Part shown: one piece after another, positions 660 through 51,723 of the stretch
Layout of the letters: the number at the start of each line of letters is the position of its first letter
How positions within the stretch are numbered: the first letter of the stretch is position 1
DNA from: a virus
Lineage: Duplodnaviria > Caudoviricetes
Strand: one strand, 5' to 3'
IMG/VR virus record: IMGVR_UViG_3300033121_001133
Coordinates: 1-64,000 of that record
DNA length: 64,000 nt
The notes under the pieces: generated by a model
Databases searched by the model: none
Told to the model about the DNA's origin: nothing
Seen by the model: the letters and a program-made list of their open reading frames with translations, nothing else
Made by a program: the position numbers and the translations under genes

Positions 660-946
660 TGATTCTACTACAAGTGGCAGAGGTAGAGAGCTTTGGTATA
701 TTCAAAGCGTTAGCTGAGTATGGTGTGCTCGGTTTGGTTACCCTTGCGCTTGGTACTATGGTGTGGTTCTTACTACGTCGAGAAATTGCCTCCGAAGACA
801 AGCTGAGAGAGAAGGTTGAGGAGCTACAAAAGGAGCTTACTAAGTATGTGGCAGAAGATCGAGCCGAGATGATTGAAGTGTTGAAAGATACTACTGAGGC
901 CTTGAAGCATCTTGAAAGAACTATTGATAACCTTTCGCGACGATGA
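659..946 (+). CDS. holin-like single-pass membrane protein
   Basis: YGVLGLVTLALGTMVWFLL transmembrane helix then a charged coiled coil. Coupled to neighbours by TAATG and ATGA overlaps. Confidence 0.55.
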   Translation: MILLQVAEVESFGIFKALAEYGVLGLVTLALGTMVWFLLRREIASEDKLREKVEELQKELTKYVAEDRAEMIEVLKDTTEALKHLERTIDNLSRR

Positions 947-1314
947 CCAGCTCAAAACTTACTCTAGCCCTGGTTGGCTTGTTTGTGGTGATGGTACTAA
1001 TGGGGGTAGCAAGCACAGGGATCAGGCACGTAGAAGTAGTTGTCAACAACGTGGTGCTAGTCGAGCAGAATGACAGTCTAAAGAGTGAGGTGCGCCAGCT
1101 AAAAAGCAACCTAGACTCTACAAGCGTCCTTGTGATAGATTCCATCTCCAAGGCAGCTCGAACAAGTGATTCGCTCAATCAGGTGATCATATCCAAACTA
1201 GACAGCACTGAACAGAAACTAAACCATGCGGAGCTTAATAGCATTACTAATCCTTACAACACTTCCCCTTATAGGCTGGAGCCAATTGATTTACCCAGTC
1301 CAGAAGATAATTGA
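943..1314 (+). CDS. inner-membrane anchored coiled-coil protein (i-spanin-like)
   Basis: N-terminal TM helix and heptad-rich body. Its 3' end is overlapped 89 nt by a signal-peptide gene. Confidence 0.5.
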   Translation: MTSSKLTLALVGLFVVMVLMGVASTGIRHVEVVVNNVVLVEQNDSLKSEVRQLKSNLDSTSVLVIDSISKAARTSDSLNQVIISKLDSTEQKLNHAELNSITNPYNTSPYRLEPIDLPSPEDN

Positions 1315-1813
1315 GGGAGGAGATACGCTAGTGATTATGACCAAGGCTCAGGCAGATCATCTGACTGGAGCTTTGAGTGCTCAATCTGCTTACATCAAGC
1401 AGATCAAGTTGAAGCATGATAGGCTAAAGACCAATCACTTTAACCTGCTGCAGGTGTTCGAGGATTGTAGGATTGAGTTGATGCGCACCAATCACTATAA
1501 TGACTCTTTGATCAATCATCTAGGAACCAACATGGCTCTACTATACAAGATGAATGACAGTAGTGAGGTGTTCTTTGTTGATCTGAAGTATTACACTGTG
1601 GATGTGTTTCGTAATGGGACCATCTTTTTAACCTCCATGAACGAGAGAGAGCGTGGTGAGGCTAGAGTTCACATGGAAAGCTATCCAGAGTGGAAGTTTC
1701 TCAACGTAGCTAATGAGCTAGATCCCTCGCATCGAGATTTTGTTGACTATGTTCGCCTATACCCAAGCAGACATCAGAATAGATTAGACCAGGAGCTATA
1801 TTTAAGACCATAA
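1226..1813 (+). CDS. exported protein with signal peptide (spanin-partner-like)
   Basis: MRSLIALLILTTLPLIGWS|Q looks like an SPI signal peptide. It starts inside the upstream TM gene in another frame. Confidence 0.55.
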   Translation: MRSLIALLILTTLPLIGWSQLIYPVQKIIEGGDTLVIMTKAQADHLTGALSAQSAYIKQIKLKHDRLKTNHFNLLQVFEDCRIELMRTNHYNDSLINHLGTNMALLYKMNDSSEVFFVDLKYYTVDVFRNGTIFLTSMNERERGEARVHMESYPEWKFLNVANELDPSHRDFVDYVRLYPSRHQNRLDQELYLRP

Positions 1814-1823
1814 CACAGACACA

Positions 1824-2003
1824 ATGAAGAACCTTTCATACGACCAGTGGGTAGGCCTGTTCCGCCACGGACTGACTATTCTTGGAACCATCCTAGTAAG
1901 CAAAGGAGCAATGGACGACTCCAACTGGACTGTTATCTCAGGTGCTGCTCTCAGCATGGCAGCAATCATCTGGTCAGTTCGATCTAAGAGCACGACTAGT
2001 TAG
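1824..2003 (+). CDS. small two-TM holin-like protein (59 aa, below the ORF-track cutoff)
   Basis: MKNLSYDQWVGLFRHGLTILGTILVSKGAMDDSNWTVISGAALSMAAIIWSVRSKSTTS*: two hydrophobic helices, a basic C-tail and an A/C-rich leader. Confidence 0.7.
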   Translation: MKNLSYDQWVGLFRHGLTILGTILVSKGAMDDSNWTVISGAALSMAAIIWSVRSKSTTS

Positions 2004-2006
2004 ACC

Positions 2007-2038
2007 GTTGTAGGTAGCTAACCGATTGCTTATATTAA
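2007..2038 (+). promoter_or_regulatory. Bacteroidota-type early/middle promoter (GTTG-N20-TATATTAA)
   Basis: TTG at 2008-2010, 20-nt spacer, TATATTAA at 2031-2038. The same geometry recurs at 3620, 32788 and 33744. Confidence 0.55.
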
Positions 2039-2042
2039 ATCG

Positions 2043-2546
2043 ATGAGCAATCAAACCAAAGCGCTGCTTAAACAAGCCAGCGCACTTCCTTATTTAGGAT
2101 ACCTCCGAGAGCAGCTTAGTGAGGTGAGAGTGCGCGTACGTCAATGGATTCCATGGAATGGTGATTACGTCTACGAGAGCTTTCGTGAGACTCGACAGGT
2201 GGTGATTCCTATTCCTGAAGACAGTTGGAGCTTTCTTGTTGCGCTACATGAGATTGGGCATATAAGTCAAGGAGAGAGGTGTGATGCCTATCTTGATGAG
2301 TATAATGCTGAGCGGTGGGCAATCAAGAGAGCAGGGCAGCGCTACGGGATCGTTAATCTGGACTATGAGTTGGATGCACGTCACTATGTAGTAAACACCA
2401 TCATCACAGACTGCTTGCATAGAGGACTAGACCCCAACAAGATCAGACCTTATGTGCTGGACTGGATTGGGGATGGCTGGACGGTCGAGTCCGTCAAGCG
2501 AGAGTTGGAAATGATTCGCTGCCACCAGCCTACACTAACTGCCTGA
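2043..2546 (+). CDS. HExxH zinc metallopeptidase-like protein (ImmA/IrrE-like)
   Basis: Motif ALHEIGH followed by a downstream E-x-x-A (DEYNAERWA). Confidence 0.65.
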   Translation: MSNQTKALLKQASALPYLGYLREQLSEVRVRVRQWIPWNGDYVYESFRETRQVVIPIPEDSWSFLVALHEIGHISQGERCDAYLDEYNAERWAIKRAGQRYGIVNLDYELDARHYVVNTIITDCLHRGLDPNKIRPYVLDWIGDGWTVESVKRELEMIRCHQPTLTA

Positions 2547-2587
2547 TGCTCAGGGAGTTAGCTAACTAGTTGAGTATCAGGGAGTTA
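2536..2587. repeat. two tandem 25-bp dyad sites TAACT-N3-TGA-N3-TCA-GGG-AGTTA (IHF-like)
   Basis: 2536-2560 TAACTGCCTGATGCTCAGGGAGTTA and 2563-2587 TAACTAGTTGAGTATCAGGGAGTTA. Confidence 0.75.
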
Positions 2588-2775
2588 TGAAATCAAAATC
2601 TTCGATTTAAGCGTCGATCGTCTTAGCCGGGTCTGAGAGGCCCGCTCCAGCCTGAAAGCGTGTCAAAATCGAGATTTTCCACCAAAAAACGCCCCTCCAA
2701 TTGCAGGCTGAACTGCCACGGAATTCTAGCATGCTCAAAAGTTATGAACCGCTGTTGCAAGTGTGAACAAAAAAG

Positions 2776-3105
2776 GTGATGCACAAGCGCTTGAAGATCG
2801 AATACCCATTCAACACTGCTGCCAATCTGGAAGTGGAGTTTCAGCCTGGGCGATGGGCACGGGTTACTCCAAATTGGTTTAGGTCTTTTGTTGGAGTTCG
2901 CCGAATCGATGGTCAACCATACACCGGTCCGGTATTTTATGAAGGTACCAACACACTATACCATCCCTCCGAGCAAGAGTGTCATCGAATTGTGGGGATC
3001 GAAGAGCTGAACTCAGTCAAACCAAAACGTAATGCGACTCGACAAGTTAAGCTGCTTTACCCAAATAAGAGGCAGCGTAGAGACCTTAATCAAACGCCAT
3101 CCTAA
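2776..3105 (+). CDS. hypothetical protein
   Basis: 109-aa ORF (GTG 2776 or ATG 2779) abutting the next gene. Confidence 0.6.
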   Translation: MMHKRLKIEYPFNTAANLEVEFQPGRWARVTPNWFRSFVGVRRIDGQPYTGPVFYEGTNTLYHPSEQECHRIVGIEELNSVKPKRNATRQVKLLYPNKRQRRDLNQTPS

Positions 3106-46438: not shown

Positions 46439-46801
46439 ATGGAAAAGGGCAAGGTTGATATTGTTACGTTGGTTCTTGTCTGCTTGGTTATTCTGCTAGG
46501 CGGTTACATTATTAGCTCTAGAAGTCATGTTGACTACAATCAATCCAACCACAGACTGGACAGCTTGAACCAAGTAATGTCTAGACTGCAGCGTGAGCAG
46601 CTAGAAAGCGATAGCATACTACGTATGTATGAGATGCGATATCAAGCTATTGAGCTAGAAAAGCAATCTCTAAGTAAAGAACTCGAAGCTACACGACAAT
46701 TCTATGGTAAAGCTATTAGGGATATTGGTAAGCTGTCTACTGCTCAACTTGACAGCTTTTTCACAGACCGGTACGATCGTACTAGATTACAGCACCGCTA
46801 A
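46439..46801 (+). CDS. inner-membrane anchored coiled-coil protein (i-spanin-like)
   Basis: N-terminal TM helix and coiled coil, overlapped 98 nt by the next gene. Confidence 0.55.
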   Translation: MEKGKVDIVTLVLVCLVILLGGYIISSRSHVDYNQSNHRLDSLNQVMSRLQREQLESDSILRMYEMRYQAIELEKQSLSKELEATRQFYGKAIRDIGKLSTAQLDSFFTDRYDRTRLQHR

Positions 46802-47105
46802 ACAGGTCGCAGAAGATTTGCTTAGAGGAGATTCTGCTGCAGCGGAATTGAAAGTTGCTAACAGGACTTTAACGGTACTAGAGACTCAACTAGCCGTTCG
46901 TAATAGTGAGATGGCTGAGATGAGGCGTAAGCAGGACAACTATCTCACTCAATTAGGCACTCTAAACGAAAAGGAGTCAATCTACCTTGGGCTGAATGAT
47001 CAGCTAACAAAGGACAATCGAAGATTGAAGGTTGAGGTCAAGATACTAGGAGCAACGGCTTCAGTTAGCATGGTAATCGCAACTGTTGCATTATTACTAC
47101 GCTAA
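46704..47105 (+). CDS. exported coiled-coil protein with C-terminal hydrophobic anchor (spanin-partner-like)
   Basis: MVKLLGILVSCLLLNLTAFS|Q signal and a C-terminal VKILGATASVSMVIATVALLLR. Confidence 0.55.
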   Translation: MVKLLGILVSCLLLNLTAFSQTGTIVLDYSTAKQVAEDLLRGDSAAAELKVANRTLTVLETQLAVRNSEMAEMRRKQDNYLTQLGTLNEKESIYLGLNDQLTKDNRRLKVEVKILGATASVSMVIATVALLLR

Positions 47106-47106
47106 C

Positions 47107-47952
47107 ATGAGCAATCCCAGCCTCAAGGAGCTAATCAAAAAGGAGTACGTTAAATGTGCTACGTCTCCTGCGTACTTCATGAAGAAGTATTGTATGATTC
47201 AGCATCCAACTAAAGGGAAGATCCCATTCCACCTCTATCAATTCCAGGAGGACACTCTACAAGATTTTACTGAGCATGATAGACTAGTGATTCTGAAGTC
47301 TAGACAGCTAGGAATCTCCACGCTGATCGCTGGATACGCTTTATGGTTGATTTTGTTCCACAGCGATAAGAACTGCCTGGTTGTAGCTATCGATCAAGCA
47401 ACCTCAAAGAACCTAGTAACTAAGGTTCGAGTAATGTATGATTGTCTGCCTAGCTGGCTGCGAATCAAGTTTGTTGAAAGGAACAAGCTATCAATGAGGC
47501 TGTCAAACGGATCACAAATCAAGGCAGTTGCTAGCACAGGTACCTCAGGTCGATCAGAAGCGCTATCTCTAGTAATCATCGATGAAGCAGCGTTCGTAGA
47601 AGGAGCGGAAGATTTGTGGGCATCATTGCAGCAGACTCTATCTACTGGGGGTCAAGGTATTATCCTATCAACTCCTAACGGTACCGGTAACTTCTTCCAC
47701 AAGATGTGGATTAAGGCAGAGAACAATGAGTTCAGTGTGCCTTACAAAGCAATTAGACTACCGTGGACCGTTCACCCAGAACGCGATGCTGCATGGAGAA
47801 TGAGACAGGATCAAGAGCTTGGTCCTCGACTTGCCGCTCAGGAGTGTGACTGCCTCTGGGGTCAGAGCACCATTATCGTACAGGATGAGGACGGAAGAGA
47901 GTTTGAAATCTCTCTAGAAGATCTATACGATCATTTACAAGAGGGCGACTAG
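47107..47952 (+). CDS. terL: terminase large subunit, N-terminal ATPase half, fused to split-intein N fragment
   Basis: gp17-like motifs: PFHLYQFQ, LKSRQLGIST (Walker A), VIIDEAAF (Walker B), LSTPNG, RLPWTVHP. Ends AQECD|CLWGQ...; start ATG 47107. Confidence 0.92.
   Translation: MSNPSLKELIKKEYVKCATSPAYFMKKYCMIQHPTKGKIPFHLYQFQEDTLQDFTEHDRLVILKSRQLGISTLIAGYALWLILFHSDKNCLVVAIDQATSKNLVTKVRVMYDCLPSWLRIKFVERNKLSMRLSNGSQIKAVASTGTSGRSEALSLVIIDEAAFVEGAEDLWASLQQTLSTGGQGIILSTPNGTGNFFHKMWIKAENNEFSVPYKAIRLPWTVHPERDAAWRMRQDQELGPRLAAQECDCLWGQSTIIVQDEDGREFEISLEDLYDHLQEGD
47851..47949 (+). mobile_element. split intein N fragment (IntN, 33 aa)
   Basis: CLWGQSTIIVQDEDGREFEISLEDLYDHLQEGD: Cys1 block A and the I..L.. 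helix, then a stop. Confidence 0.85.
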
Positions 47953-47969
47953 TTATAATAAACGCACTC

Positions 47970-48713
47970 ATGTATCCAACTACCTCCAGTATGAGGACCA
48001 AGCAAACTTGGGATAAGGCCAAATCAGGCCTGCGTGAGTTGGAAACTTACACGCTAGCGGACACCATCAAGATGCTTAACCGGGATGATTTACACCTTAA
48101 GCTGCGAGGGAAGGCTAAGAATAGGACACTACTCAAGACCAATCCGATATTGTATAAATCCATACTTGAACACACAAGTCAGTTGGAAAGCTTGTTTCGT
48201 ACACAAGGCGCTTACAGATCAAACTACAATCTATCGCATAGGATCAGATTCCTAGTGGAGCGAAACTGCAATATAGACTCTTTAGTCTGTAAGTGTGGTA
48301 GAAAGTATACCTGGACATCGTATTGCAGACATTGCCCCGACTACAAGCGAAATCAGTTAGGTAAACCTCACACCGAGGAGACTAAGAAGAAGATGAGGAT
48401 ATCTACCCTGCGGTATCTGGCTGGTTTGAAGGGGCAGGTGATTCCACGGTATAATAAAAACAGTATCGCCCTCATAGAGGCGTATGGCCAAAAGCACGGC
48501 TATGTTTTTATGCACGCAGAAAATGGAGGTGAGTATTTTGTCAGGGAGTTGGGGTATTTTTTGGATGGCTATGATCCTATTCACAATGTAGCCATTGAGG
48601 TAGATGAAAGAAGTCACTTCCATAAGGGTGTGCTTTGTGATAGAGACATTCAAAGGCAGAAGCAGATAGAGGCCTTATTAGGATGCACTTTTGTAAGATT
48701 GAAGTATGATTGA
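47970..48713 (+). CDS. free-standing homing endonuclease, NUMOD3 plus Vsr/DUF559-like nuclease
   Basis: CKCG...YCRHC, GKPHTEETKKKMRIS (NUMOD3), YFLDGYDPIHNVAIEVDERSH...RDIQRQKQIEALLGCTFVRL. Lies between the two intein halves. Confidence 0.8.
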   Translation: MYPTTSSMRTKQTWDKAKSGLRELETYTLADTIKMLNRDDLHLKLRGKAKNRTLLKTNPILYKSILEHTSQLESLFRTQGAYRSNYNLSHRIRFLVERNCNIDSLVCKCGRKYTWTSYCRHCPDYKRNQLGKPHTEETKKKMRISTLRYLAGLKGQVIPRYNKNSIALIEAYGQKHGYVFMHAENGGEYFVRELGYFLDGYDPIHNVAIEVDERSHFHKGVLCDRDIQRQKQIEALLGCTFVRLKYD

Positions 48714-49029
48714 GTATCGTAAAAATACCAAGTACTTGGTAAAGACCCCAACAGGCTTCAAGAGCTTTACTGGAGTGAGGCGCACCACTAAGTCCTCTGT
48801 CTTGGAGATACTATTCAAGGACAACACAAAACTTCAATGCTCCCTAGATCACAGGTTTATTATTGGAGGAGAGGAAATCTTAGCGAAAGACCTAACAGTG
48901 GGAAATCAGCTAACCTCGGACAAAACCATCATAGCTATAACAGAGCTAGACAATTCTAGGTTTCTGTATGACTTGGTGGGTGTAGACGATGGTAGTTTGT
49001 ACATAGCAGATGGTATTGTATCACACAAC
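48706..49029 (+). mobile_element. split intein C fragment (IntC, 108 aa)
   Basis: VKTPTGFKSF, block B CSLDH, AKDLTVG, block F LYDL, block G GIVSHN, then Cys+1 at 49030. Confidence 0.9.
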
Positions 49030-49863
49030 TGTGACTTCTCCACCTCTGGTAACACAGTAGTTTCTCCAACTATTATAACCGAGTACGTAAACAAGTATCA
49101 AAGGGACCCTATTGAGAAGACCGGCTTCGATTCCAATCTATGGATCTGGGAACATCCCGACTACAGCAGAGATTACATCGTGTCTGCAGACGTGGCGCGT
49201 GGAGATGGCACTGACTATTCTGCATTTCACGTGATTGATGTGGAGACAGCGCGGCAGGTTGCCTCATATAGAGGACAGTTAACTACCAAGGATTTTGGCA
49301 ACATGCTAGTTGCAATAGCAACTCAGTATAATGACGCACTGCTTTCGATTGAAAACGCTAATGTAGGTTGGGCAGTACTTCAACAGGCGATTGATCGAGG
49401 CTATCGTAATCTGTATTACACTCAAAGGGACGATGCTCTTGATGCAGATCGATACCTTCTTAGAGGCAGCGACTTGACCAGTAAGTCTAATATGGTGGCT
49501 GGATTCACCATGTCTCATAAAGTTAGGCCTCTGGTGATTAGTAGGCTAGAGCTATACATGAGAGAGTTCAGTTGTGAAATTAGGGACAAGAGGCTCTTAG
49601 ATGAGCTATACACTTTTGTCTATCACAACGGACGTCCTGAAGCAGCACAGGGATACAATGACGATATGGTTATGAGTTTTGGTCAGGGGTTGTGGGTAAG
49701 AGACACAGCAATCAAGCTCCGTCAAGCGGGAATGGAGCTTAATAGGTTGGCAATTTCAAACATTCGCTCTAGTACTGGAGTCTATAAGGCAGCTACTCCA
49801 AACAATCCATGGGAAATGCACACTCCCAGCGGTCAAAGGGAGGATCTTAATTGGTTGCTCTGA
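48706..49863 (+). CDS. terL: split-intein C fragment fused to terminase large subunit nuclease half
   Basis: After SHN|C: DFSTSGNTV...IVSADVARGDGTDYS...IENAN.G...GYNDDMVM, the RNase H-like terminase nuclease. Confidence 0.92.
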   Translation: MIEYRKNTKYLVKTPTGFKSFTGVRRTTKSSVLEILFKDNTKLQCSLDHRFIIGGEEILAKDLTVGNQLTSDKTIIAITELDNSRFLYDLVGVDDGSLYIADGIVSHNCDFSTSGNTVVSPTIITEYVNKYQRDPIEKTGFDSNLWIWEHPDYSRDYIVSADVARGDGTDYSAFHVIDVETARQVASYRGQLTTKDFGNMLVAIATQYNDALLSIENANVGWAVLQQAIDRGYRNLYYTQRDDALDADRYLLRGSDLTSKSNMVAGFTMSHKVRPLVISRLELYMREFSCEIRDKRLLDELYTFVYHNGRPEAAQGYNDDMVMSFGQGLWVRDTAIKLRQAGMELNRLAISNIRSSTGVYKAATPNNPWEMHTPSGQREDLNWLL

Positions 49864-49887
49864 CTATCTATAACAAATAGAGTTTGA

Positions 49888-51723
49888 ATGGCGGATTCTT
49901 CCCTTTTTAGTAGGCTGAAGCGACTCTTCAGTACGGATGTGATTATCCGCAACGTGGGCGGTAATCAGCTTAAGGTTATAGACACTGCTCGAATCCAGTC
50001 TGACGGTAACATCAACACCAACAGACGAGTCGATCGGTTTTCCAGAATGTTCTCAACCAACTCTTCTGGATTCTCCCACTACGCAGGACAGCTTCAGCTA
50101 TACACTCGACTAGAGCTATTCCGAGACTATGAGGCAATGGACTCTGACAGCATTATAGCCTCAGCACTGGACATATATGCCGATGAGTGTACCGTTCAAA
50201 ATGAATTTGGGGATGTGATTGCAATCTCCTCTACTAACGAGAAGGTACACAAGCTGCTACATAATCTATTCTACGATGTGTTAAACATCGAGTTTAATCT
50301 ATGGCCATGGGTGCGCAACACTCTAAAGTACGGGGATTTTTTCCTCAAGTTGAATGTAGCTGAGAAGTTCGGGGTGATCGGGGTAGATCCCATTTCAGCC
50401 TATGAGATGATCCGAGAGGAGAATTACGATCCAGAAAATCCCCAGAAGGTTAGATTCCGTCGAGATCCAACAGCCTTATCTTCCAAATACTCTGCTCAGT
50501 CTGGCGCCCGCGAAGAGGAGGTGTATGACAACTATGAGATTGCACACTTCCGCCTTCTAACCGATACCAACTTTTTACCCTACGGTCGTTCGTTGGTAGA
50601 ACCGGCTCGTAAGGTGTGGAAGCAGTTGACTCTGATGGAGGATGCAATGTTGATTCATAGAATCATGCGTGCTCCAGATAAGAGGATGTTCAAGATTGAC
50701 ATCGGTAACATTCCTCCTAATGAGATTGATGCTTTCATGGAAGCGACAATCACTAAAATGAAGAAGGTACCTTACGTTGATCCCCAGACTGGAGACTACA
50801 ACCTAAAGTACAACATGCAGAACATCCTGGAAGACTTCTACTTCCCGGTCCGCGGTAGTGAAAGTGCAACCACCGTAGAAAACATCTCTGGACTACAATC
50901 AGACGCAATCCAGGATATAGAGTATCTGCGTAATAGGATGCTGGCATCGCTCAAGATTCCAAAAGCCTACATTGGATATGAGGAAGATACCAGCGGTAAG
51001 AGCACTCTAGCCTCCCAGGATTTCCGCTTCGCCCGCACTATTGAGAGAATTCAACGAATCATAGTGTCTGAGCTTCACAAGATTGCAATCGTGCACTTAT
51101 ATGCACAGGGATGCTCAGATGAGGAGTTGGTTGATTTCTCCCTACAGCTAACGGCCCCCTCTACTGTGTATGAAAAGGAGAAGATAGAGTTGTGGCAGAG
51201 CAAGGCAACCTTGGCTGGAGATCTTCTAGAGAAGAAGCTGTGCAGTAGGTACTGGGTGTACAAGGAGGTGTTCAATATGCATGAGGAAGAGTACCTCGAG
51301 GAGCAGAATAGGATCATCATTGATGCCAAGGAGCAGTTCAGAATTGAGCAAATCAAAACAGAGGGCAATGATCCTGTTAAGACAGGACAGTCGTTTGGTA
51401 CACCTCACGATTTAGCTACCCTATACAAGGGAGGAGGAGGGTTGCCAAGAGGATATGATGAGCGAACAGCTGAGATGCCTGAGGGGGGGTGGCCCGGTGC
51501 AGGGCGACCCGAGGAGCCAGGGACTTATGGGACCCACAAACACCCACTAGGATGGGATCCTCTCGGAAATAAGGGTAACAGGAAGGTCTATGAGCAAGCT
51601 ACGGCTGCGAAGTATGGTGGCCTGATTCGAGAGATTAAGAAGAAGGCGGTTACTGAGACGTTTGATTTACGCCCAGAGGAGCCTGAGCCTCCTATGCTCG
51701 ACGAGAACAATCTTTTACCTTAA
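49888..51723 (+). CDS. gp20: portal protein (T4 gp20-like)
   Basis: ALDIYADE, LMEDAMLIHRIMRAPDKRMFKIDIGNIP, EDFYFPVRG, LASLKIPK. Lies between terminase and protease; TATCTAT upstream at 49865. Confidence 0.93.
   Translation: MADSSLFSRLKRLFSTDVIIRNVGGNQLKVIDTARIQSDGNINTNRRVDRFSRMFSTNSSGFSHYAGQLQLYTRLELFRDYEAMDSDSIIASALDIYADECTVQNEFGDVIAISSTNEKVHKLLHNLFYDVLNIEFNLWPWVRNTLKYGDFFLKLNVAEKFGVIGVDPISAYEMIREENYDPENPQKVRFRRDPTALSSKYSAQSGAREEEVYDNYEIAHFRLLTDTNFLPYGRSLVEPARKVWKQLTLMEDAMLIHRIMRAPDKRMFKIDIGNIPPNEIDAFMEATITKMKKVPYVDPQTGDYNLKYNMQNILEDFYFPVRGSESATTVENISGLQSDAIQDIEYLRNRMLASLKIPKAYIGYEEDTSGKSTLASQDFRFARTIERIQRIIVSELHKIAIVHLYAQGCSDEELVDFSLQLTAPSTVYEKEKIELWQSKATLAGDLLEKKLCSRYWVYKEVFNMHEEEYLEEQNRIIIDAKEQFRIEQIKTEGNDPVKTGQSFGTPHDLATLYKGGGGLPRGYDERTAEMPEGGWPGAGRPEEPGTYGTHKHPLGWDPLGNKGNRKVYEQATAAKYGGLIREIKKKAVTETFDLRPEEPEPPMLDENNLLP

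Follow-up and report, generated by a model that had tools for sequence, protein, structure and literature searches.

A predicted Cat-family split intein and a free-standing endonuclease gene in the fractured terminase of an uncultured phage

We analyzed the large terminase subunit (TerL) locus in a 64,000-nt stretch of phage DNA (Duplodnaviria; Caudoviricetes), positions 1 to 64,000 of the IMG/VR record IMGVR_UViG_3300033121_001133, hereafter the window. A first-pass annotation, made from the letters and the translated open reading frames (ORFs), had described TerL as encoded by two ORFs at 47107-49863 with an endonuclease gene between them, and the ORFs were found as stated, all on the plus strand. 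The N-half ORF (47107-47952, 281 aa) comprises the TerL N-extein, or ATPase domain (47107..47850; 248 aa, C-terminus AAQECD), and the N-terminal intein fragment, IntN (47851..47952; 33 codons, Cys1-Leu-Trp-Gly ... LEDLYDHLQEGD, plus a TAG stop). Its start was placed at 47107 and not at the TTG at 47086, since the alignment with intein-less TerL opens at the Met of 47107. A 17-nt spacer separates its stop from the start of a free-standing endonuclease ORF (47970-48713, 247 aa). The C-half ORF (48706-49863, 385 aa) opens with the C-terminal intein fragment, IntC (48706..49029; 108 codons with blocks B, F, and G), and continues as the TerL C-extein, or nuclease domain (49030..49863; 277 aa plus a stop), which begins with Cys+1 (CDFSTSG). 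The IntC ATG lies within the endonuclease 3' end, giving an 8-nt overlap at 48706-48713 (ATGATTGA), and a predicted RNA hairpin (47936..47974) covers the IntN tail, the spacer, and the endonuclease start codon. This is the order of a fractured gene: host-N/IntN, endonuclease ORF, and IntC/host-C on a single strand, with the endonuclease 3' end overlapping IntC.

Both outer ORFs encode recognizable parts of one terminase. The phrog_2 terminase profile spans the break, with positions 260-458 on the first protein and 451-589 on the third. The N-extein matches Pfam Terminase_6N (E 2.5e-11), phrog_5989 (E 3e-39), and the ATPase structures of T4 gp17 (E about 1e-28), and it is 56% identical to the TerL N-part of the cultured Flavobacterium phage vB_FspM_immuto (hereafter immuto). 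It carries a deviant Walker A (KSRQLGIST), a Walker B (IIDEAAF), and an STP motif. In the Walker A (47296-47322, N-half residues 64-72), an Ile replaces the P-loop Lys of T4 gp17 (SRQLGKTT), and the invariant Lys opens the motif. The KSRQLGIST type is common to all relatives, including cultured immuto, and we take it to be the "deviant Walker A" of lambda gpA-type terminases. The C-extein (C-half residues 109-385) matches the nuclease structures of RB49 and T4 (3C6A, E 5e-7; gp17, E 2e-5) and is 49.5% identical to immuto TerL (from residue 108 on). Conservation was assessed across 27 C-halves and six N-halves at 46-78% identity, and the catalytic C-half residues D162, E216, and D319/D320 are invariant.

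To represent the spliced product, we joined the two exteins by script. The predicted protein of 525 aa aligns with the 524-aa intein-less TerL of immuto from Met1 to the last residue at 53% identity, and the junction (AAQECD|CDF) is gapless, with AAQECDCDFSTSG here versus AAQECDCDFLSSG in immuto. The predicted splice-junction peptide is ...AAQECDCDFSTSGN..., and the continuous ATPase-nuclease linker anticipated by the first-pass annotation is borne out by this alignment. In gp17 alignments, the intein site falls at about residue 346-348, which is presumably just before the ATPase-nuclease hinge.

The intein fragments themselves run from AAQECD|CLWG to LQEGD* (IntN, 33 aa, with a core of about 28 aa) and from MIEYRKNTKY to SHN|CDFSTSG (IntC, 108 aa); junctions and lengths, read from the translations, agree with those first proposed. 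IntC matches CatC (PDB 6DSL chain B, "consensus engineered intein CatC") at E 4e-16 over residues 5-110, with about 39% identity as counted from the printed alignment. In this alignment, block B (CSLDH; S46, H49) falls on CSDNH, block F (LYD, 87-89) aligns LYDL on LYDL, and block G (SHN, 106-108) aligns SHNC on SHAC. IntN matches CatN (6DSL chain A) over 28 aa (residues 2-29) at E 0.08. Residues 91-109 of the C-half also score 23.0 bits against NCBIfam TIGR01443 (intein C-terminal splicing region), for which the cut-off is 15.6. S46, H49, L87, Y88, D89, S106, H107, N108, and C109 are invariant in the C-halves, as is QEC-x-CLWG in the N-halves (C249, L250, W251, G252). The sequence thus includes the hallmarks of a class-1 intein, namely Cys1 in block A, (T/S)xxH in block B, blocks F and G, and a +1 Cys.

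Judged by its sequence, the locus adds a member to the AceL/GOS-TerL (Cat) group of atypically split inteins in a fractured-gene arrangement. Cat was built as a consensus from two atypically split TerL inteins, AceL-TerL (25 + 104 aa) and GOS-TerL (37 + 115 aa) (PMC11766414, which cites the studies of Thiel 2014, Bachmann & Mootz 2015, and Stevens 2018 on these inteins). Our locus has the same host protein and the same Cys1/Cys+1 nucleophiles as AceL-TerL and Cat, it is likewise split just after block A, and its IntN of 33 aa and IntC of 108 aa lie within the known ranges (25-37 and 104-115 aa). The AceL-TerL type of split, which the first-pass annotation had recognized along with blocks B, F, and G, is therefore upheld by the matches of both halves to 6DSL. 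The allele differs from the Cat family in being diverged, in its very acidic IntN, in a QEGD tail that belongs to the hairpin of the endonuclease cassette, and in its host phage, which is akin to immuto. Orthogonality to other inteins of this family is unlikely; cross-reaction is expected from the homology to Cat, AceL-TerL, and GOS-TerL and from a report that the AceL-TerL fragment can take the place of the GOS-TerL IntN (PMC11766414).

A complex model of IntC (1-125) with the N-tail (236-281) reached an interaction prediction score from aligned errors (ipSAE) of 0.61, versus 0.00 for the best control; in the benchmark, this value was attained by 58 of 80 solved complexes and by two of 110 mismatched pairs. 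Contact agreement between runs was at least 76%, and the partner predicted local distance difference test (pLDDT) score was at least 65. Contacts lie on blocks A, B, F, and G, and the N-half interface spans residues 247-278. This result is a likeness to the solved 6DSL complex, not proof of binding. The charge counts of the first-pass annotation were correct on recount: IntN has 10 Asp/Glu and one Arg (net -9), while the first 30 aa of IntC have eight Lys/Arg (net +7). The electrostatic capture first proposed gains no support from relatives: the charge split is strong here, with the most acidic IntN among the six compared, but it is not family-wide, the IntN being net 0 in L012 and net -1 in L046 (both IMG/VR loci).

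The protein encoded between the halves has a helical domain at its N-terminus (about residues 1-105), followed by a knuckle of the form CxC...CxxC (107-122), a stretch resembling NUMOD3 (about 131-142), and, at the C-terminus, a Vsr-like nuclease domain of the PD-(D/E)xK type (about 155-247). By itself, the 247-aa ORF has no significant family match. NUMOD3 is below the cut-off in this protein (E 0.033; best among relatives, E 8.5e-15), and Pfam searches of 37 relatives detected NUMOD3 in 20, MTES_1575 in seven, and DUF559 in three, the latter two weakly. At least 90 metagenomic cluster relatives were found, none with a Pfam domain across the core. The AlphaFold 2 (AF2) model of the endonuclease has a pLDDT of 91.6. 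In VIA-align comparisons, the nuclease domain gave Z scores of 10.5 with RAP domains, 6.8 with 3HRL (DUF559-like), 6.6 with Vsr (1CW0), and 6.8 with I-Bth0305I (3R3P; root-mean-square deviation 4.1 A over 74 residues). Foldseek paired the endonuclease with 3R3P at probability 0.98 and E 0.06 and, used alone, returned no match at E<=0.001. A Vsr-like fold is seen in these model comparisons, with no sequence-level match to I-Bth0305I or Vsr. D199, E210, E213, H216, D226, and R229 are invariant in the 37 relatives. C107, C109, C119, and C122 are also invariant and look like a zinc knuckle. Altogether, the enzyme is Vsr-like and probably of the EDxHD type. Its N-terminal 105-residue domain (47970-48284; model pLDDT 88.4) has no PDB match above Z 3.5, which is not proof of a new fold; this domain is presumably the DNA-recognition module. 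In L012, the TerL N-half is directly preceded by a second endonuclease paralogue (1411-2280, 289 aa), which has an additional C2H2-like segment at its N-terminus, as do P0109 and P0114-P0116 (ROS/MUCR matches).

I-Bth0305I is an EDxHD (Vsr-like) homing endonuclease in a recA group I intron (Taylor et al. 2011, PMC3239194; PDB 3R3P). The two proteins are alike in their C-terminal fold class and in the association with phage split inteins, and probably also in having N-terminal NUMOD-type motifs. The Asp-His-Asp spacing is 17/10 here versus 17/9 in I-Bth0305I (D196/H213/D222), a comparison of spacings for which no residue-level alignment was obtained. In contrast to I-Bth0305I, to which it has no detectable sequence similarity, our endonuclease carries a NUMOD3-like stretch and a Cys4 knuckle instead of two NUMOD2/helix-turn-helix motifs.

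The hairpin at the endonuclease start has a 5' arm CAAGAG (47938-47943) and a 3' arm CTCATG (47967-47972), the latter containing the ATG at 47970, and its loop contains TTATAATAAA. The minimum free energy is -17.3 kcal/mol, with a z of only -1.79 for this sequence alone. In 10 loci, the stem CAAGAA/TTCTTG is kept (6+2 bp), with both-sided changes at two of the eight pairs. The IntN tail in the subclade is QE(G/C)DYL. Conservation of its DNA, CAAGAAGGNGACTATTTATAATAAA, extends to synonymous positions, and this DNA pairs with TTCTTG at the endonuclease start. This phage has TAG where its relatives have TAT, so its IntN has 33 rather than 36 aa. Because the last four to five codons of IntN overlap the conserved hairpin, the tail is best read as part of the cassette's control region, which fits a report that the GOS-TerL IntN tolerates shortening from 37 to 27 aa (PMC11766414). 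By its position over the start codon, the hairpin probably throttles endonuclease expression.

The tail (47934-47949) also resembles the N-junction (47839-47856) at the protein level (QEGD/QECDYL versus QECD|CL). We rejected an ongoing duplication or gene conversion of the junction QECD|CL and ascribe the tail instead to the conserved hairpin: within each locus the two stretches agree at only 11-14 of 18 bases, and from locus to locus the tail keeps its DNA sequence whereas the junction codons have drifted. A role of the loop element as a late promoter used generally by this phage was likewise rejected, since the 64-kb window contains TATAATAAA only twice and TATAAATA once, on the other strand. 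A loop-like motif was not found upstream of neighboring late genes, and sigma-70 and terminator scans gave sites no more numerous than in shuffled sequence.

That the architecture is not new, as the first-pass annotation had said, is clear from Dassa et al. 2009 (NAR 37:2560, PMC2677866), who describe a terminase split intein "fractured at an unusual point" whose long C-part keeps all the N-motifs except N1. Our locus and the fractured genes of that study (the GOS "Terminase" locus included) have in common the gene order on one strand, the short spacer, the overlap of the endonuclease 3' end with IntC (8 nt here, 6-69 bp there), and an AT-rich, late-promoter-like loop in a hairpin that lies at the start of the endonuclease. 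They differ in details: the spacer is 17 nt here versus 27-51, and the loop element here is TATAATAAA, not the exact TATAAATA. A second comparison is offered by the cultured Vibrio phage VP-1 and VAP7-like phages (MH363700), in which TerL is broken at the same intein position, also with an endonuclease between the pieces (IntN CLWGQSNIIL..., IntC ...SHN|CSF). The VP-1 endonuclease is GIY-YIG-like, with the motif judged by eye; instead of standing free, it forms an in-frame fusion with IntN. The VP-1 TerL has a second, contiguous mini-intein at Walker A, after SRQSGK, and its pieces are annotated in GenBank as "terminase large subunit" and "terminase like family protein."

The same three-gene layout is found in IMG/VR loci L006, L007, L008, L012, and L046. 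A search of IMG/VR with the endonuclease alignment identified 433 stretches that encode a relative, and in all 80 loci fetched the endonuclease lies within a split TerL (both flanks present in 75, upstream flank cut by the contig end in five). With IntC alone as query, 952 cluster representatives were matched at E<=0.001, of which 232 also at E<=1e-10. Among the 150 IntC matches listed, more than half by eye are N-terminal (split forms) and the rest internal (contiguous), including several contiguous forms with multiple matched stretches. One natural contiguous mini-intein at the same TerL site, P0028 (672 aa, metagenomic; linker ...IQEPEYLLKSTRITCKKNTKY...), retains a tail-like QEPEYL and falls among fractured alleles in the extein tree; loss of the endonuclease gene from a fractured allele, followed by re-fusion, may have produced it. 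Two further candidates suggested by tblastn as intein carriers, L031 and L082, proved intein-less on inspection.

Intein presence is scattered on the TerL tree, as expected for a mobile element. On the 110-row C-extein tree, it requires at least 13 changes, at least nine of them forced by strongly supported branches, counts that are indicative given the uneven sampling of the tree. Intein-less and fractured alleles occur as close sisters (L004 with P0009, L011 with P0012, and cultured immuto with L006); the nearest neighbor of our phage is P0002 (fractured; 79% identity over 277 columns), followed by L005 and L004, both intein-less. Identity between exteins goes along with identity between cassettes (Spearman 0.57), and the pair L102/L103 has cassettes 99% identical in exteins 89% identical. 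The insertion site, GCnGCnCARGARTGYGAY|TGYGAYTTY, is among the most conserved DNA of the gene, lies in the middle of a TGTGAT-TGTGAT repeat, and has the same flank consensus in fractured and intein-less alleles. In five loci (L148, L153, L155, L160, and L161), the insertion is in a second register that lies two codons farther upstream (AAQE|C...), with C-exteins starting CDTEF, CDTDF, CDADF, or CDCDF. From the two registers, the intein precedes either Cys of the CDCD repeat.

Altogether, this is very probably a TerL gene fractured by a homing-endonuclease cassette within a Cat-family class-1 split intein. In this explanation, a class-1 intein of the Cat family sits in the conserved TerL motif AAQECD|CDF, with its gene broken after block A by the free-standing endonuclease cassette. 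The products would be two polypeptides, ATPase-IntN (33 aa) and IntC (108 aa)-nuclease. IntN would dock as the missing strands onto the near-complete IntC, restoring the Hint fold, and Cys1, Ser46/His49, Asp89, His107-Asn108, and Cys+1 would perform class-1 trans-splicing. Splicing is predicted to yield a TerL of 525 aa whose two parts are joined by a native peptide bond, and DNA packaging would depend on it. The endonuclease would most likely cut intein-less TerL at or near TGTGAT|TGTGAT, and such cleavage would spread the whole intein-plus-endonuclease unit during co-infection.

Several results weigh against this explanation or parts of it. On the intein side, Pfam Intein_splicing was sub-threshold in a scan of the C-half (18.9 versus 35.8 bits), and the complex model could have passed through memory of 6DSL. 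Rows of the C-extein tree were chosen in two ways, intein-bearing rows by intein similarity and intein-less rows by extein similarity. The endonuclease has no usable sequence or profile match in PDB, I-Bth0305I and Vsr included; its Z scores of 6-7 tie with those of other PD-(D/E)xK nucleases, so that assignment to the Vsr-like subfamily draws on the D-17-H-10-D spacing and on context.

We also considered that the intein halves dock without splicing, or that splicing is dispensable, and that TerL works as a non-covalent two-piece enzyme whose parts the intein fragments keep together. Two-piece phage enzymes assembled in the absence of splicing are documented, as in the fractured Aeh1 NrdA with its non-intein interaction domains (PMC3045599). 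Yet all class-1 catalytic residues are invariant across the divergent C- and N-halves, which is hard to explain without selection for the chemistry, and docking alone would leave a 141-aa Hint domain wedged beside the ATPase-nuclease hinge; we consider this quite improbable. The chance is negligible that the split is an artefact (assembly error, frameshift, or mis-join) of a gene that is really contiguous. The source is indeed an uncultured IMG/VR record (137,379 bp, 81% complete), but dozens of independent contigs from different samples have the same ORF boundaries, an overlap of 8 nt, the Met-Ile with which IntC begins, and the stop after IntN, and the inserted gene encodes what the model depicts as a full, well-folded endonuclease. 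Joining at the RNA level, with the endonuclease ORF inside a self-splicing intron, has a precedent in the Vsr-like endonucleases of group I introns, such as I-Bth0305I in recA (PMC3239194). Against it, no Rfam intron or other RNA family matched at E<=1 in 46500-50500, the flanks encode recognizable blocks A, B, F, and G that share the reading frame of the exteins, and excision of the endonuclease region from the RNA would still leave the intein, so we give this route practically no weight.

A different objection concerns the middle gene, which may have ceased to encode an active homing enzyme. It would then be a passenger in decay or one that has been domesticated, for instance as a regulator or DNA-binding protein, and the element would be inherited only vertically. 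The correlation between extein and cassette identities is as expected under vertical descent. On the other hand, the ORF is intact and the six residues listed above (D199 to R229) do not vary among the 37 relatives; close TerL relatives differ in whether they have the cassette, and the L102/L103 cassettes are near-identical in more diverged exteins. We regard an inactive passenger as unlikely, and the fractured gene with a mobile cassette remains our preferred explanation.

Beyond this, we think it rather doubtful that at least one of two additional proposals holds. In one, the endonuclease cassette, and not the intein, may set the atypical split point, which would be a recurrent landing site with a homing logic of its own. 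This proposal comes from the coincidence of the IntN end with the cassette hairpin, from the presence of two unrelated endonuclease types, Vsr-like here and GIY-YIG-like in VP-1, at the same point, and from a presumed endonuclease DNA-recognition domain without a solved relative. In the other, the -9 IntN facing the +7 N-terminus of IntC may associate through electrostatic steering that is absent in Cat and AceL-TerL; if so, this allele would be faster than, or orthogonal to, those inteins.

The fractured terminase layout has been known since 2009 and is common in environmental phages, and this locus is one more case, which leaves current understanding standing. What is added here is the overlap between the IntN tail and the hairpin, and the GIY-YIG-like endonuclease at the same split point in a cultured Vibrio phage. 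Atypically split TerL inteins are useful tools because their short IntN can be obtained as a synthetic peptide, and variants found in nature offer starting points for pairs that are faster or orthogonal to one another, a pool that this allele and its relatives enlarge. The locus would also make one more essential late phage enzyme dependent on a selfish element. Finally, the Vsr-like endonuclease lineage, which has no Pfam family and occupies one TerL site in every examined locus, is apparently single-target and may suit specificity studies.

Some TerL genes carry two inteins of this family: L155-L158 from IMG/VR and L002, the Vibrio phage VP-1 locus (843-3059). In L155, the second C-junction, SHN|CAFIDN, lies at Walker B. 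In the window, the gene immediately downstream of the TerL C-half (49888-51723) encodes a gp20-like portal protein of 611 aa, and immuto has a portal homologue in the same position, annotated as "capsid assembly protein."

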